A stretch of DNA of 64,000 nt from contig NC_086097.1 in NCBI RefSeq assembly GCF_963921235.1, positions 12,152,001 through 12,216,000 on the forward strand. The letters run 5' to 3'. The notes below the pieces were generated by a model that had not been told where the DNA came from, made no database searches, and saw only the letters and a list, made by a program, of their open reading frames with translations. Origin of the DNA: Mobula hypostoma. Lineage: Eukaryota. Positions within the stretch are counted from its first letter, which is position 1, and each line of letters starts with the position of its first letter. Of the stretch, positions 4,686-57,590 are shown in pieces. Position numbers and translations under genes: made by a program.

Positions 4686-5752
4686 GAACATAGAACATTG
4701 AACAGTACAGTACAGCACAGGAACAGGCCATTCAGCCCACAATATTGTGCCAAATCAGCTAAAAATCAAATCAAAAACTTCCAAACACTAATCCCTCCTA
4801 CCTGCACTATGTCCATATCCCTCCATCTTCCTTATATCCATGTGCCTATCCAAATATCACTTAAAAGCCTCGAATATACAATGTTTGCCTGCTCCACCAC
4901 ACCTGGCAACACATTCCAGGCACTCATGACTCTCTGAGTAAAAAACTTACCCCTCATATCCTCCTTCAAATCATGTACTCTGGTATTAGACATTTCAACC
5001 CCGGGGTACAGATACGCTTTGTCCACTCTGTCTATGCCTTTCATTATCTTCCCTCATCATCACACTTTTCGTCCCTCTTCCCTCTGGGAGAAGGCTCAGG
5101 AGCTTGAAGACTTGTACTGCCAGGTTCGGGAACAGCTTCTTTCCAACTCTGATAAGACTGCTGAACGGATCCTGACCCGGATCTGGGCCGTACCCTCCAA
5201 ATATCCAGACCTGTCTCTCGGTTTTTTTGCACTACCTTACTTTCCAGTTTTCTATTTTCTATTTATGATTTATAATTTAATTTTTTAATATTTACTAATT
5301 TCTACTATTTTTAATATTTGATATTTGTAATCCAGGGAGTGGGAAGCACAGAATCAAATATCGCTGTGATGATTGTATGTTCTAGCACCAATTGTTTGGC
5401 GACAATAAAGTATAAAGTATCTTGTAAATCTCTATCAGATCTCCCCTCAGCCTCCAGCACTCCAGAGAAAACAACCAAAATTTATCTAGCCTTTCATAAT
5501 AGCACATGCCCTCTTAAACCAGGCAACATCCTGGTGAACCTCTTCTGCACCCTCTCCAAAGCCTCAATTATTCCTAAAGTGAGTCAACCAGAACTGTACA
5601 TAATGCTCCAGCCGTGGCCTAACCAGAGTTTTATAACGTTGCAACATAACCTCTTGATGGTTAAACTCAATGCCTCGATTAATAAAAGCAAGCATTCCAT
5701 AAGTCTTTAACCATCTTATCAACCTGTGTAACCACTTTCAAGGAGCTATGAG
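4686..5752 (-). mobile_element. CR1 LINE 3' fragment with a nested plus-strand Rex-type insertion (about 5051-5419, short TSD tatctt)
   Basis: tagaacatagaaca tail; KFFTQRVMSAWNVLP on the minus strand; the insertion matches 13122-13411. Confidence 0.8.
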
Positions 5753-5764
5753 CTTTGATGCTGC

Positions 5765-6912
5765 TCATGGGGCTACTTAACAAGATAAGAGCCCATGGTA
5801 TTACAGGAAAGATACTAGCATGGATAGAAGATTGGCTGAATGGCAGGAGACAAAGAGTGGAAATAAAGGGGACCTTTTCTAGTTGGCTGTCGGTGACTAG
5901 TGGTGTGCCGTAGGGACCGGTGTTGGGACCACTTCTTTTCATTTCGTATGTCAATGACTTGGATGATTAAATTGTTGGTTTTGTGGCCAAGTTTGCATAC
6001 GATATGAAGAGAGGTAGAGGGGCAGGTAGTGCTAAGGAAGCAGAGGGGCTGCAGAAGGACAGACAGATTGGGAGAATGGACAAAGTAGCAGATGGAGTAT
6101 AGTGTAGGGAAGTTTATGTTCACGCACTTTGGTAGAAGGAATAAAGATATAGGCTATTTTCTAAATGGGGAGAAAATTCAAAAATCAGAAGAGGAAAGGG
6201 ACTTGAGAGGATTCCCTAAAGGTTAACTTGCAGGCTGAGTTGGTGGAAAGGAAAGTAAATGTGATATTAGCATTCATTTTGAGAAGACTGGAATATAACA
6301 GCAAGGATGTAATGCTGTGGTTTTATAATGCAATGGTCAGACCACACTTGGAATATTGTGAGCAGGTTTAGGTCCCTTATCTACAGAAAGGTGTGCTGGC
6401 ATTGAAGATGGTCTGGAAGGGATTCACAAGAATGATTCCAAGAATGAAAGAGTCAATGTATGAGGAGTGTTTAATAGCTCTGGACCTGTACTAGCTGGAG
6501 TTTAGAAGAATGAGGGGGAATCTCATTGAAACTTACCAAATGTTGAAGGGCCCAGATAGAGTGGATGTGGAGAGGATGTTTCCTATAGAGGGCGAATCTG
6601 GAACCAGAAGGCAAAACTTCGGAATAGAGGGACGTCCATTTAGGACAGCGATGAGAAGGAATTTCTTTAGCTAAAGGGTGATGAATCTGTGGAATTCATT
6701 ATGATTGTTGGCTGTGAAGGCCAAGTTATTGAGTATATTTAAAGCAGAGGTTGATAGGATTTTGATTAGACAGGTCATCAAAGGTTACAGGGAGAGGCAG
6801 GAGAATGAGGTTTAGAGGGATAATAAATCACCCATGATGGAATGGCAGAGCAGACTCAATGGGAGAAATGGCCTATTTCTGCTCCTATGTCTTATGGTCT
6901 TATAGTCTTATA
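5765..6912 (+). mobile_element. Decayed CR1 LINE (RT domain to 3' tail)
   Basis: gtgactagtggtgtgccgtagggaccggtgttggg (VTSGVPxGxVLG), stops and frameshifts, tcttatggtcttat tail. Confidence 0.9.
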
Positions 6913-6962
6913 GTGTGGGTGTCATCAGGAGCAATATTCAGTAGTCTGGAAAATCAGCTCAT

Positions 6963-7777
6963 CAAAGGTTCAAAGGTACAATTTAATGTCAGAGAAATGC
7001 ATACAATATACATCCTGAAATGCCTTTTCTTTGCAACCATCCACGAAAACAGAGGAGAGCCCCAAAGAATGAACGACAGTTAAATGTTAGAACCCCAAAG
7101 TAACCCCCAGCTCCCCCCTCCTGCGTGTAAGCAGCAGTGAGCAACAATCCCTCCTCCCCTCCCACCGGCAAAAAAAAGTATTGGCACCCGCCACCGAGCA
7201 CTCAAGCGTGAGCAAAGCAACAGCAAAGACACAGACTTGCAGTTACCCAAAGATTGGGTTTCACCCAGTATTCAACATACCGCAGGTTCTCCCTCTCCCT
7301 AATAAGGGAGAAAGAGGTGTCTCCGTTTTCCCAGCGAGCGGGGAGACATAACAAGCAACTCACTGGTTTACGATGTTAAACGTCGGTTACGTCGCTTTTT
7401 TCGAGCTCTGTGCTTGAAGATCACAAAGATCCCGGGTCTCCAGGCACACAGCAGATATCCAACTCCCCCAATAGCACACGGGTCTCCTGTCGTGACACTG
7501 ACCCTCGATCCACCTGTCTCCAGAGCCTCGAGATCCTAGGCTTCCAAATTCGAGCCTCGACTCTTAGGCCGAGCCCTTGGCATGACGAACAATGGCCAGT
7601 TATGGAACCCCGAGAACAGGTCCCATTCCCACAAAGAACCGTAGTCAGCGTGTAACTCCAAGTCAGCGTCTTCAAAAGAACCCTGAAAGGAAAAAATAGA
7701 GATATTAAAGATGGAAATAGCGCTGTTTCCAAAGATGCAAATAAATGAGTCACCATTAGGAGCCATTAAGCCTCCTA
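6963..7777 (-). mobile_element. Non-coding retroposon or LINE-UTR-like element with (TGAACCTT)n tail
   Basis: caaaggttcaaaggtacaatttaatgtc tail of the Rex-type class; GC-richer body with no credible ORF. Confidence 0.5.
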
Positions 7778-15329: not shown

Positions 15330-15511
15330 TGTATATAATAAATTAAATAAGTTGTGCTAAAAGAGAGGGAAATATAACACAAGATCAGACATCTCTCCAC
15401 TGGCAGCTGACCCTCACTGGGAGAATATAGACTGAAACACTCCCATAAAAATCAATGTGCTTCCAATGGTACATGACCATTCAGATCAGGTGAAACACTG
15501 GTGCCTTCAAT

Positions 15512-15763
15512 TCTTCTTCTAAAGCCTATCACCCATACAGGGACATAGACCGCTGACAGCCCCTCACCACTGGGCTCTGTCCTGGGCCAGTCTTTCCAGT
15601 TGTCCCCAGGTGCAGCCCATCTTTGAAGATCCTTCCTTTCCCACAGATGACATCCTTGGACCTTCTATTGCCGTTACTCTAGCTCTGGGTTTTTAACGGG
15701 ATGAGGCAATTGCCCAACTGTACTCCTTTTGCAGCCGGCCTTGGGGCCATCCACAGTAGAGTT
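15512..15763 (-). mobile_element. Bipartite RTE-derived non-autonomous retroposon (5' UTR with twister-like motif plus 3' end)
   Basis: TSD tggtgcctt(c/t)aat at 15499-15511 and 15764-15776; 3' part translates GCTWGQLERLAQDRAQW*GAVSGLCP (RTE C-terminus); (AGA)n tail. Confidence 0.85.
15712..15763 (-). ncRNA. Decayed twister ribozyme, 3' cleavage product
   Basis: AA-CUCU-AC-UGUGGAUGG-CCCCAAGG-CCGGCUGCA-AAA-GGAG-UACAG-UUGGGC compared with the twister pattern U|AA-P2-GC-P4-UCCCAAGC-P4'-P2'-GAGGG-P1'. Confidence 0.7.
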
Positions 15764-17404
15764 TGGTGCCTTTAATGGCTGCCTAAACCATGTGTTGGTA
15801 TGCCCAACTCTTATTGATGGCCCACTTCACTGAAACAGGACACAGGGCTGATGAATGATCTTGGCGCGAAACACTGACTTTTCATCTCCCTTGATAGATG
15901 CTGTCTAACCTGCTAAGTTCCTCCAGCTTTGTGCGTGTGTTGCTCACAGAGACAGGAGCAGGAGATTCACCTGACACGTGGGTGCCAGGGTAGCATCATC
16001 TTTAGCATGACGCCATTACAACTCGGAGCATTCCAGAGTTTGGATTTGAGTTTCAGCGCCCTCGGTAAGGGGACTCTGGATTCTTCCCACAGTCCAACAA
16101 AGTACTGGTTAGTAGGTTAGCTGGTGATTCTAAATTGCCCTGTGATTAAGCTAATTTTAAATCAGTGGGTTGTGGCTGCAACACCACTCAACCAGCTGAT
16201 CTGTCTCTCTCCTGTACGCAAGTTACTGTATGTTCATTCATAGCCTTAGACCTCCTATTGGGGGTTCATTGCACTATTTCAACCTCTAAAACAGACCTAA
16301 ATAAATGTACAAACATATTCCTGGTTTTTCTCTAAGTTGTCAGGTTGTCAAGGCTTTAGAAGCTTTATCAAAGTTGTTTGTCAATCTTTTCTACTCTCCT
16401 CATTGGCATATGTTCTGCAGAGGGCACTCTACCAAGATTTAGACAGGACAAACGGAGCTCAGATTTAAACTAACATTTCATCATGTTTCTTCATCAGATT
16501 TCCTTTATCTTCTTCCTTTCTCTCTCTATAATATCCTGCCCTCTGTGTGTCTGCTGAAGGCAATTATGAAATGCAGATGGATGTGAACCATAAACACAGG
16601 AGTTCTGCAGGTGCTGGAAACCCAGAGCAATACACACAAAATGCTGGAGGATCTCAGCAGGTCAAGCAGCATCTGCGGAAATGGCCGAGACCCTCCATCA
16701 GGACTCTGATGTGCTGAAGGTTTGCAGCATTATCACTTACGCATATCACAGTAATGCACAGGTCAGGCCCACGGACCCCTTACTTAATGGTATTTGTCCA
16801 TGGCATTAAAAAGATTGGGAACCCTTGCACTAATGGTGCACAGTACTCCAAATACTTTACACAGCTGCAAAGTAACTTTACAAGTGTTATATTTAGTATC
16901 TTGGCTGATATAGGCAGTATGCTGTATGCCTTCTTCAAAACTCCATCCTTTCAGAGAGCTTCTAGTGCACATCTATTAGGTGCCCCCTCAGTCTTCCCTT
17001 GGCAAAGACAATCTTTGTGTCTATAAGGACAATTGATGGAAGAAATATTTACATTGCAATTGCTTTACTTGCAGATATATTAAGTTACAGATAATTCCAT
17101 TCAGTTTATGTCTTATTCTTACACATATGAATGGTGCACATATAGAAGTCCACATACACACACCCATGTGTATATAAACTTTTATATATTGTACATGTAT
17201 GCTTCATGCACATACATAAAGAAGAGTGGATAGCATAAATGCAGGGAATGTTTCTACAGACATGAGTTTAAATCCCACCATAGCAGTTGGGGATTGAGTT
17301 GTCTGTGATCAAATACAGTAAATTCTGAATTTGAAAAGCTAACATCAATAATAGCAAAAATTATCATTTCTCAATTATTGAGAAGTATATTTGCTTGTTC
17401 GTTA

Positions 17405-54900: not shown

Positions 54901-57590
54901 TTTCTTACAGAAACATCTGCATGATGCTAAGCTAGGGCACATCATCAGTGATATTACCTGGGGTCATCAGGTGTTTCGGGTCTTTCAACATCATACACCC
55001 TCGCCCAGGCGACCCGACCGGGGTTGATCAGACCCCGGTCTGTGCCCTAGCAGCAACCCACAGATCTGCCCTCCTTATCCAAAGCCATCTTGACGCTTTC
55101 TCTGCTGCATCTGTGTTGGTAGAAATGACTCTCCTTCTTCTCTCTCCAGTGATTCCAAGTGCAGTATGTACTTTGCAGAGCGACTGGCCTGCAAAGCCAC
55201 GACACCCGACCTCCACGGGCCAACACTTTGCTCTCCAGCCTCTTCTTTGGCAGTTGTTCTTCAGATCCTCATTCTTCGCTCTTTTCCACTCGTAGGCCTC
55301 CTCCATGCGTTCTTCCCATGGCACGGTAAGCTCAAGCATAAGAACGTGCTTCGATGAGTCGGGTCACAACACAATGTCGGGCCGCAATGTAGTCTCTCTA
55401 ATGTGGGAGGAAACTGCAGCTGCTTTCCCAGGTCTGCTTTCAGCTTCCAGTCCTGTGCAATGAAGAGCAACCTGGTTGCTTTCTGGTGTTCTGTTGGTCT
55501 TTCCCCCTCTTTGACAAAGCAGATGCTATTCTCGACCGGACTTGTTTTCCGGCAGATGTTAAGGGAGCTGCAGATTGTCTCAGCAATTGTCCGGAGGACC
55601 TGGTCATGGTGCCACCACTGATAACGGCCATCGGCAAGAGCTCTGGGGCAGCAGCTCAGAATATGCTCTAGCATACCGGTCTTCTCACAGAGGGGGCAAG
55701 CTGGTCGTTCTGCAAGGCTCCAGCAGTGCAGGTTGGATGGGCTAGGAAGGACGTCATAAACAGCCTGGATAAGGAACTTGATGGGGTGTGGATCCACCTT
55801 CCAGAGATCATTCCATGTGATCTTTCGCTCGATCACTTGCTCCCATTTGGTCCAGGCTCCTTGCTGTTTCATTGCCACTGCTCTGCTGGTCCTCTCCTCC
55901 TCCACAGCTGCCATTACTTCATCCTGAACCAGTTCTCATTGCTCTTTCCCTTGTACTTTGTCAAAATGGGGGACTTCAAGGCTTCCAGGTCCAACTCTTC
56001 CCTTGGCGACTGCCCCCACCAGCACTTTGTGGTGCATTCGTGCCTCAGCTTCATCCACTGCAGCTTCTGCTCTCCGCTCTCTTCCAGTTCTCACTACCAC
56101 TCTTGCTCCGGCAACCTTTGGATCTGAAGATTCCCGGAACTGCAGCACCTCTCTTACTCGCCAAACCTTGAACTCCTCCTCGATGGATTTCAGGGGGAGC
56201 CTCAGTTTGTAGTTATTCCTGTACAGAGCGATGCTGCTGATGTTGCTTAGTGAACCAGCCATCTTCGCAGGAACCAGCTGACTACCCTCTCTAATTCAGC
56301 AACAGTGGAAATTGGAAACTCACAGAGAAGCAGTGGCCAGAGGATTCTTGTTTGTATACCGTGCTGGTAAATCTATGCCTTAAACCACCCTGGAATGCCA
56401 GTCCTGTCAACCTCTCGCAACCATTGTTCAAACTCCCCACTGGTATTTCTTATTGCCGCCTTATCTCTGAGTGTGGCATCAAACCTCTTCCCAAGACTTT
56501 TAACAGGGTTCTCTGTGATGGTAGGAATTGGAATGTCCTCAGTGGAGAAACAAAATTTCTCCTGTGCTCTCCCCTTCTTAAGCACCACAGATCTTGATTT
56601 TGCAGGCTTAAAGGACATCCTTGCCCACCTCATCAACCTTTCCAGCCCCTTAAGAATCCACCTAACACCAGGCACTGACTCCATAGTGATAGTCAGATCA
56701 TCCATGAAGGCTCGTGTTGGTGGTTGGCGGATCCCAGATCTTGACCTCGGGCCTCGACACTCTGGCTCTGCAGATTTTACCAGCATGATCATTGCCAGGG
56801 CAAAAAGGATGACTGAGATGGTGCAGCCTGTGATAATACCGATCTCCACCCTGCACCAGTCTGATGTCATTGGCCCTGTTGAGACTCTCAAGTGGAACTC
56901 GTTGTGGTAGTCCATAAGGAGGCCTCTGATTCCTTCAGGAACATGGTGCCTCCTCAGAGCGCCTGCAACAACCTTGTGGGGGATTGATCCATAAGCATTG
57001 GCCAAATCCAACCACAAAACCACTAAGTCACCCTTATTCTTTCTGGCCTCTCTCAGGAGCTGTGTGATGACTCCAGTGTACTCCAAGCAGCCTGAGACCC
57101 TTGGAACACCACTCTTCTGGGTAGAGGTGTCAATGTAAGGCACTTCACCACCATGCTGAGGAAGATCTTCCCTTCAACACTCAGCAAGGATATTATCCTG
57201 TACTGGCTGACGTTCTCAGAGTTCTCTTCTTTTGGAATCCACACTCTGTTTGCATACTTCCATTGCTTGGGCCCTTTGCCTCTCTTCCAGACGACCTTGA
57301 GGATTCTCCACAGCCGCCGGAGAAGCCGGGGGCAGTGTTTGTAGATGTTGTACGTGGTGCCACTCGGACCAGGAGCTGAGCCAGCTCAGGCTTTCTTGAC
57401 TACTTGCTGAACCTCCTTGAAGAGAGGCTCTCGAAGGTCGAAAGCCTCTGTTGCTTCTGTGGGGGCGATGAGGGCATCACAGTCTCCCAGTTCAGCTTCT
57501 CTGTCTGGGTTACTGAAGGTGCTTCGAAGGTGGTGGTCCGTCTATTCCTTTGTGCAGGACAGCTTTCCACTTCTCTTCTGACCCAGCAGC
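54901..57590 (-). mobile_element. HERO-clade (R2 group, RLE-type) non-LTR retrotransposon, 5'-truncated and frameshifted
   Basis: RT motifs WLDLANAYGSIPH, GIITGCTISVILF, AFMDD; zinc knuckle CPLC..HILSCC; HDQVL; TLRPDIV and LELTVPWEE RLE motifs; stop at 55028; imperfect 45-bp flanking duplication. Confidence 0.9.
54935..55016 (-). ncRNA. Candidate strand-permuted hammerhead-like RNA with kink-turn in the HERO 3' UTR
   Basis: Core GUA, GAAA and CUGAUGA each correctly flanked by the complementary arms of stems I and III; canonical k-turn sequence extending stem III; stem II weak or supplied by an upstream strand. Confidence 0.6.

Follow-up and report, generated by a model that had tools for sequence, protein, structure and literature searches.

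What is the 252-bp insert that lies in a stretch of DNA from Mobula hypostoma, and why does its 5′ end fall on a position where a twister ribozyme would cut? The window considered here is the whole stretch of 64 000 nt (positions 12,152,001–12,216,000 of the forward strand of contig NC_086097.1, assembly GCF_963921235.1). An original prediction, made from the letters alone, read the insert as an RTE-derived mini-retroposon, a full-length cDNA of a self-cleaved RNA, and called it a ribozyme-released SINE. Comparison with other copies in the genome, with longer elements sharing its two ends and with published ribozyme-bearing retrotransposons makes it probable that the insert is a defunct copy of a non-autonomous element, derived from an RTE-like LINE by internal deletion, which would have been released as RNA by the twister at its head and copied in trans.

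Anatomy and decay of the insert

The insert occupies positions 15512–15763 of the window on the minus strand, between two 13-bp target-site duplications, ATTAAAGGCACCA (15776–15764) and ATTGAAGGCACCA (15511–15499). We estimate the chance of a match between anchored 13-mers, no more than one mismatch being allowed, at ∼6e-7 per placement. In minus-strand order the parts are:

15764–15776, minus strand: 5′ target-site duplication ATTAAAGGCACCA; 12 of 13 bases identical with 15499–15511; abuts the first base of the element.
15714–15763, minus strand: decayed twister head, element positions 1–50; from the sequence, comparison with the family majority, and the homologous positions of other copies, which match RF03160.
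15625–15713, minus strand: leader from a LINE 5′ UTR; from the alignment and from the same leader standing before the ORF start in LINE copies L082/L099, L101 and L105.
15521–15624, minus strand: last ∼34 codons of an RTE-like ORF, noncoding now; from translations, a profile search and the LINE 3′ end L100.
15512–15520, minus strand: (AGA/AAG)n 3′ tail; same tail type on other copies and on RTE-like LINE copies.
15499–15511, minus strand: 3′ target-site duplication ATTGAAGGCACCA; its first A could equally be tail.

Read from 15763, the minus strand gives AAC (15763–15761), CUCU, AC, the arms UGUGGAUGG and CCGGCUGCA, AAA, GGAG, UACAG and UUGGGC, the order from AAC to UUGGGC that had been described at the outset. 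A1 at 15763 corresponds to the cleavage-site adenine, CUCU and GGAG to the strands of P2, and UUGG to the 3′ strand of P1. The two arms, of nine bases each, flank CCCCAAGG in this copy. Here GC has become AC, UCCCAAGC has become CCCCAAGG and GAGGG has become UACAG, so that the loss of pseudoknot bases claimed for this copy is borne out. Because both pseudoknot partners and part of loop L4 are lost, the window copy should, judging from these positions, no longer cleave. Rfam at its gathering score gives no match in the whole window; around the insert, at E ≤ 10, twister is not found and three unrelated weak matches are the only ones returned. A SNORA77-like match at window positions 15731–15847 on the plus strand (17 bits for a cut-off of 42, E 0.46) spans the 5′ junction of the element on the opposite strand and is taken as chance.

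What follows the head had been called a short linker, a term to be replaced, as this segment is LINE 5′ UTR of about 90–95 nt. In the window copy, part of the hairpin that is conserved downstream of the ribozyme has been lost (∼9 nt), and ∼40–75 nt of the leader are also common to the 5′ UTR of L066, an RTE-like LINE considered below. The internal deletion junction lies at about 15625/15624. Beyond it, the 3′ part reads in one frame as ...MGCTWGQLERLAQDRAQW, a stop, GAVSGLCPCMGDRL, a stop and KK, an ORF remnant of the form …KMGxTWGQLERLAQDRxxW, stop, xAVSGLCPxxGD…, and the 3′ terminus is AGAAGAAGAA (15520–15511). The window holds no second copy of the element. A weak reverse-transcriptase-like fragment at 56769–57472 on the minus strand, 20–27% identical to the L066 ORF (tblastn, E 3e-11), probably belongs to another LINE clade.

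The family, its common 5′ end and the twister head

The window's own 3.48-Gb assembly contains at least 2,605 first-look candidate copies, and the 40 candidates scored all match, with E ≤ 4.8e-36, identities of 74–82% and many alignments starting at query base 1. Thirty copies were aligned together with 100 bases of upstream flank; they are 79–89% identical to the majority sequence, the window copy standing at 81.5%. The majority reads AACUCCGCC, a short spacer, GGUCCCAAGCCCGG, CUGCGAAA, GGAG, GAGGG and UUGGGCAU, followed by the GGGGCUAGCAACCCC hairpin. A 26-nt stretch of natural core occurs 155 times in the genome at up to one mismatch, and its reversed control 0 times. Exact core matches number 22, of which 20 were retrieved and are referred to as core-intact loci (of the other two, one was already present as L008). 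The entire head is unchanged in six of these 20 natural copies, for example at L088:61–110 (AACTCCGCCATGGACGGTCCCAAGCCCGGCTGCGAAAGGAGGAGGGTTGG), and these read AACUCCGCC...GGUCCCAAGCCC...AAAGGAGGAGGG like the majority, as foreseen for the consensus. Contigs from three public runs bridge the 3′ end of L088 into unique flank with 13–14 differences over 150–190 bases; the L088 insertion is therefore common to related sources and old.

The 5′ ends were compared in 54 unique copies, obtained from 61 BLAST hits in 60 loci after removal of duplicates and with L031–L035 excluded. Column identity in the 30 aligned copies rises from 0.3–0.4 upstream to ∼0.9 at AAC. Among the 54 copies, 41 start with AAC and five with AAT; 45 match at least six of the first nine majority bases, the remaining nine being without recognisable head. 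In a sample collected with the tail only, and thus unbiased toward full length, 18 of 23 copies match at least six of these nine bases. Duplications were scored when the match ended exactly before A1, one mismatch being tolerated from 9 bases and two from 14 bases. Such duplications, of 9–16 bases and abutting A1, are present in 13 of 45 copies, the window copy among them, against 4 of 135 trials when the anchor is shifted 5, 9 or 13 bases upstream.

Four public contig sets, placed on L088 at 85% likeness, tell the same on a larger scale. The element collects 4,903–7,454 contigs per run, with a depth of 0 over flank bases 1–42 of L088. Contigs beginning at A1 number 218, 193, 130 and 173 in the four runs (714 in total), and those beginning one base before A1 number 109, 134, 83 and 100 (426 in total, 1,140 with the A1 starts). 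Their upstream letters agree at only 0.35–0.37, and the flanks are therefore unrelated. In the copies and contigs compared, homology begins sharply at the cleavage-site A, with 5′ ends piling up at AAC as anticipated. The common 5′ end of the family falls on the predicted twister cleavage site.

The assignment of the head relies on covariance models and on its conserved nucleotides. With Rfam at E ≤ 1, 13 of the 20 core-intact loci match twister-P1 (RF03160) and no other family; the top three scores are 42.0, 41.2 and 39.8 bits, with a best E of 9.6e-7. Within a sample of 20 of the 29 older copies, ten match twister-P1 at 24.2–30.7 bits and one unrelated weak match appears. In the Rfam check proposed at the outset, twister-P1 is the only recurring family, but the best score is 42.0 bits and no copy reaches the gathering score of 67.2 bits. 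Scores remain below this value because P3 is absent and because the 5′ strand of P1 is flank DNA that pairs only by chance; the alignments also show one P4 pair as A·G. Every alignment shown places the U/AA of the model (the slash marking the cut) on a flank base followed by AA. The conserved nucleotides, that is N/AA, the GC after P2, the GUCCCAAGC loop, AAA and GAGGG, are all found in the majority and in the six natural copies, and align to conserved columns of the RF03160 model. At the level of sequence, the strands of P2 (CUCC/GGAG) and the partners of pseudoknots T1 (GC/GC) and T2 (CCC/GGG) can be recognised. P4 consists of three pairs and an A·G mismatch, and a G precedes AAA where the model has a conserved U; either of these could lower activity.

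P1 has a particular status in this family. Its 3′ strand UUGG is conserved and its 5′ strand is flank DNA, where positions −2 to −5 show no enrichment of bases complementary to UUGG, so that P1 is not generally formed. T occupies position −1 in 19 of 45 copies, a bias that is weak at best. Pairing of CUCU with AGAG occurs in only 2 of 54 copies, and the CUCU and ACC variants represent CpG decay in copies that decay neutrally. The minimum-free-energy fold of the L088 head is no better than that of shuffled sequences (z +1.36), pseudoknots being outside the fold model. Taken by its sequence, the family head is a predicted P3-less, type-P1-like twister.

A head of this kind might be an inactive relic, the 5′ end being set instead by the transcription start of a master copy at A1 or by a strong stop of the reverse transcriptase. 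The Rfam cut-off that no copy reaches, the mismatched P4, the missing P3 and the unremarkable fold energy would suit such a relic. They have to be weighed against a 5′ end that equals the cleavage site of the model to the base in LINE copies, in the main short family and in other derivatives alike, against the integrity of all strongly conserved core motifs in the majority, and against the identity of these motifs with those of Schistosoma elements shown to cleave. Moreover, P3 and P1 are dispensable according to the consulted part of PMC5408937. A relic is for these reasons unlikely, and the reading of the head as the source of the AAC end is preferred.

Relation to an RTE-like LINE

The 3′ part of the element resembles the end of a LINE protein. 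A profile built from six open tail translations yields 132 protein matches (E ≤ 1e-3; lowest E 5.1e-18). In six of nine profile-matched proteins inspected, the match extends to the C-terminus or ends only a few residues before it, and the matched C-termini read ...MGYTWxQLERxAQDRxxWRxxVxGLCPxRGxxxK. When Pfam is applied to the 12 longest of the 132 matches, RVT_1 passes its cut-off in one of them and DUF6451 is found in three, while six have no family and the others unrelated families; with RVT_1 or DUF6451 in few of these 12 proteins, the linkage to reverse transcriptase is therefore supported by a minority of the matches. A homology search for longer proteins with one open tail translation found none. 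The C-terminal motif is one that we take to be typical of RTE. Further RTE-like traits are the domains of the L066 ORF, a short 3′ UTR with an AAG-repeat tail, and atlas neighbours that include a ‘craniofacial development protein 2’ cluster.

A LINE copy of ∼3.0 kb on C45, examined at both ends, carries the head at one end and the tail of the element at the other. Its 5′ end consists of flank, then AACTCTGCCATGGACAGTCCCAAGCC..., the leader and the ORF start, and its 3′ end (L100) matches element positions 148–241 at 81% identity. In L082/L099, head and leader are followed by an endonuclease N-terminus (...IGAWNVKTMHESGK... in L082), and the endonuclease stretch of L082 is 44% identical to residues 28–124 of the 1000-aa ORF of L066. 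Element positions 1–142 match the LINE 5′ end. The 252-nt element is thus made of LINE positions 1–146 (twister and 5′ UTR leader) joined to the last ∼106 nt (C-terminal codons and AAG-repeat tail), the junction lying at majority position 146/147, ∼20 bases ahead of the ATG of the ORF. It is a SIDE-like deletion derivative, in which the 5′ and 3′ ends of the LINE are kept and the ORF is gone. The RTE origin proposed from the window copy is upheld, both by the tail, which matches C-termini of reverse-transcriptase-bearing proteins, and by the ∼3.0-kb LINE with the same head and tail.

The main short type is accompanied by other derivatives. BLAST sorts the 20 core-intact loci into eight of the main short type, about five of a second type, four with other junctions, one LINE and two truncated copies. 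The second type consists of the LINE 5′ end to about position 178 and a shorter tail; in L084, L090, L092, L094, L097 and L093 it seems to join the early LINE coding region to the tail at a CCAGGAC word. This shared word, noticed by eye only, hints at microhomology at the second-type junction. In the four public runs, 315, 394, 291 and 411 contigs diverge from L088 at element position 142 and share a LINE-type continuation from there. Five partial matches retrieved with 8-kb flanks are all short copies without LINE tails.

The diversity of internal junctions among the 20 well-kept copies, one of which appears by eye to use the shared CCAGGAC word, raises the question of whether full-length LINE RNA gave rise to the short copies one by one, through template switching during reverse transcription, with no self-propagating short family. 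For the main type this is very unlikely. It has one junction, and in 51 of 54 copies the 18-mer spanning it shows no more than six differences; TGG is followed by a TGA codon in 35 of the 54 (by CAA in seven and CGA in four), where a LINE copy keeps CGA; and a genome search with the tail only returned 30 matches out of 30 of this short type and no LINE. Descent of the main type as a short family of its own is therefore retained. A classical polymerase-III SINE is highly improbable, since the GGTCCCAAGCC stretch, which resembles the B-box consensus at most positions, begins at element position 16 and leaves no room for an internal A-box, ARAGORN finds 0 tRNA genes in eight loci, Rfam finds no tRNA, 5S or 7SL match in 40 loci at E ≤ 1, and the same head stands on a 3-kb LINE. 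In the expression ‘ribozyme-released SINE’, what holds is a short ORF-less retroposon with an AAC end; ‘SINE’ itself is loose for an internally deleted LINE without a tRNA, 5S or 7SL head.

Other LINEs and repeats of the genome were encountered in these searches. L066 (C36:131599000–131603200, minus strand) is an RTE-like element that appears intact: its ORF of 1000 aa contains Exo_endo_phos, RVT_1 and DUF6451 domains, and it has an AAG-repeat tail. Its 5′ UTR has the hairpin and leader of the twister-headed family; Rfam at E ≤ 1 detects no ribozyme in it, its leader lacks the CCCAAGC core and it shows no clear duplication. Having neither twister core nor ribozyme match, L066 was rejected as the parent. 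An abundant RTE family (L067–L078), in which the ORF ends ...GMTWSQLERYAQDRLIWKEVVDGLCSLVS and is followed by GTTGAAAGGCAGAAGAAG, is a protein-level relative of the tail of the element. Compared by blastn with the tails of these 12 loci (12 of 147 matches), the tail of the element gives no match, and the family was rejected as direct source; with its tail of the same type, it represents a distinct lineage. When the genome was searched with Pfam RVT_1, 332,529 first-look candidates appeared. Of these, 150 were scored and almost all belong to one family, at ∼157 bits, and many matches of this search have open frames of 1264 aa; a different LINE family, seemingly young, dominates the genome. Two small repeats can be added. 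Positions 1–2214 of L035 (C63:55100300–55102513) form a tandem array of ∼2.2 kb with a 57-bp period and copies 93–97% alike. At ∼918–1000 of L099 (C36, ∼105646767–105646849), an ∼80-bp stretch within the decayed LINE copy has many genome matches at 92–96% and is probably a much younger small repeat inserted there.

Proposed mechanism, significance and known systems

The life cycle proposed for the family can be described in a few steps. The element would lack a promoter of its own and be transcribed inside a longer host or read-through transcript. The head twister would then cut between the flank base and A1, giving an RNA that starts exactly with AAC, as the position of the 5′ ends suggests. 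The endonuclease and reverse transcriptase of an RTE would act in trans by recognising the shared 3′ end, and target-primed reverse transcription would copy the RNA to its very 5′ end. The outcome is observed as full-length copies with duplications of 10–16 bp abutting A1. Each new copy would regain an arbitrary upstream base and flank in place of a P1 5′ strand. In the consulted part of PMC5408937, the twister core comprises stems P1, P2 and P4, P3 is optional (78% of twisters have it, the rice ribozyme does not), and twisters without P1 cleave off a single nucleotide at nearly wild-type rate. This literature on the dispensability of P1 and P3 makes the postulated cleavage and release plausible.

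A twister-defined 5′ end of RTE elements is already published for Perere-3 of Schistosoma, and the present family is a further example, not a new principle. Its novelties are modest: a P3-less head missed by the Rfam cut-off, a dominant 252-nt derivative, and the recurrent formation of derivatives. It provides a second, independent and very large data set for a twister setting the 5′ end of RTE RNA. The host genome is a large animal one, remote from Schistosoma, and thousands of copies occur in it and also in at least four further sources that have been sequenced. The family further suggests that neither P3 nor a fixed P1 may be needed for a twister to fill this 5′-end role. As the Rfam cut-off misses the P3-less form, surveys based on this cut-off under-count such elements. 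For annotation, the appropriate label for the copies is RTE-derived non-autonomous element, rather than unknown repeat. The open full-text literature searched yielded no paper on non-autonomous elements with a twister head, nor on their occurrence in vertebrates.

A broader proposal can be put forward tentatively. The twister head could be an ancient portable module of RTE elements, pared here to a working P3-less and P1-less mini-ribozyme that repeatedly spawns ORF-less, promoter-free retroposons. Its basis is the presence, by eye, of the CUCC/GGAG, GAGGG and UUGG strands in sequences of the PMC8501958 supplement from a grass, teleosts and Schistosoma, as far as that supplement was consulted, and the existence of at least three distinct junctions between 5′ UTR and 3′ end among the 20 loci. 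If true, there would be a class of short promoter-free retroposons relying only on read-through transcription and self-cleavage, and every sense-strand insertion in a gene would plant a cutting site in the host transcript.

The closest known system is Perere-3, an RTE element of Schistosoma mansoni with T-variant twisters at its 5′ end (Liu et al. 2021, PMC8501958). In the portions of that article consulted, target-site duplications adjoin the cleavage site, the flank supplies the P1 5′ strand, cleavage is shown in vitro and in reporters, and Table 1 gives the strands CUCC/GGAG, GC, GUCCCAAGC, GAGGG and UUGG. The likeness to the present family is close: in both, the twister stands directly upstream of an endonuclease/reverse transcriptase ORF (here in L082/L099), the duplications abut the cleavage site with a P1 5′ strand taken from the flank, and all the strands just listed are identical. 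The differences concern P3, missing here and present in all examples of Table 1 and the supplement that were inspected; the replacement of GUAAA by GCGAAA; and the ribozyme itself, known here from sequence and there with cleavage in vitro and in reporters. The setting differs too, with a 3.5-Gb genome in which the dominant form is a 252-nt ORF-less derivative, without counterpart in the consulted portions of PMC8501958. The same supplement contains similar sequences from Aegilops, several teleosts and two snakes. By eye, some of its sequences continue with UUGGGCAUGGGG as in this family, and all those inspected have P3; its consulted part makes no mention of Callorhinchus, Rhincodon, Chiloscyllium, shark, Danio or Latimeria.

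In a passage of de la Peña et al. 2020 (PMC7761336), ‘truncated but catalytically competent’ twisters are mentioned at the 5′ end of RTE-superfamily retrotransposons, with reference to work in preparation. The present head, without a P1 5′ strand, at an RTE-type 5′ end and with a proposed role in 5′ processing, fits this remark; the passage itself names no sequences, hosts or non-autonomous forms, and the open literature searched yielded no later article that follows it up. For the architecture of the ribozyme, the nearest case in the part of PMC5408937 consulted is that of Oryza sativa, a basic type-P1 twister without P3 and P5. Both share the P1-P2-P4 organization without P3 and the same L4 and GAGGG motifs. 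In rice, however, P1 is fully paired, whereas here its 5′ strand is arbitrary flank; P4 is here interrupted by an A·G mismatch and may contain additional pairs.

For the derivative as a whole, the parallel is found in the SIDEs of R2, short elements with an internal deletion in which the HDV-like ribozyme of R2 is preserved (PMC6765202, in the part consulted). In both cases, ORF-less derivatives retain the two ends of a LINE, the 5′ one with its ribozyme, and depend on copying in trans, a step that is presumed for the family here. The ribozyme is HDV-like there and a predicted twister here; R2 is site-specific in rDNA and co-transcribed with rRNA, whereas the present family is dispersed, with variable duplications. 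An arrangement of ribozyme and tail can thus propagate as a 250-nt parasite of a LINE, in parallel with the R2 SIDEs and with another class of ribozyme.
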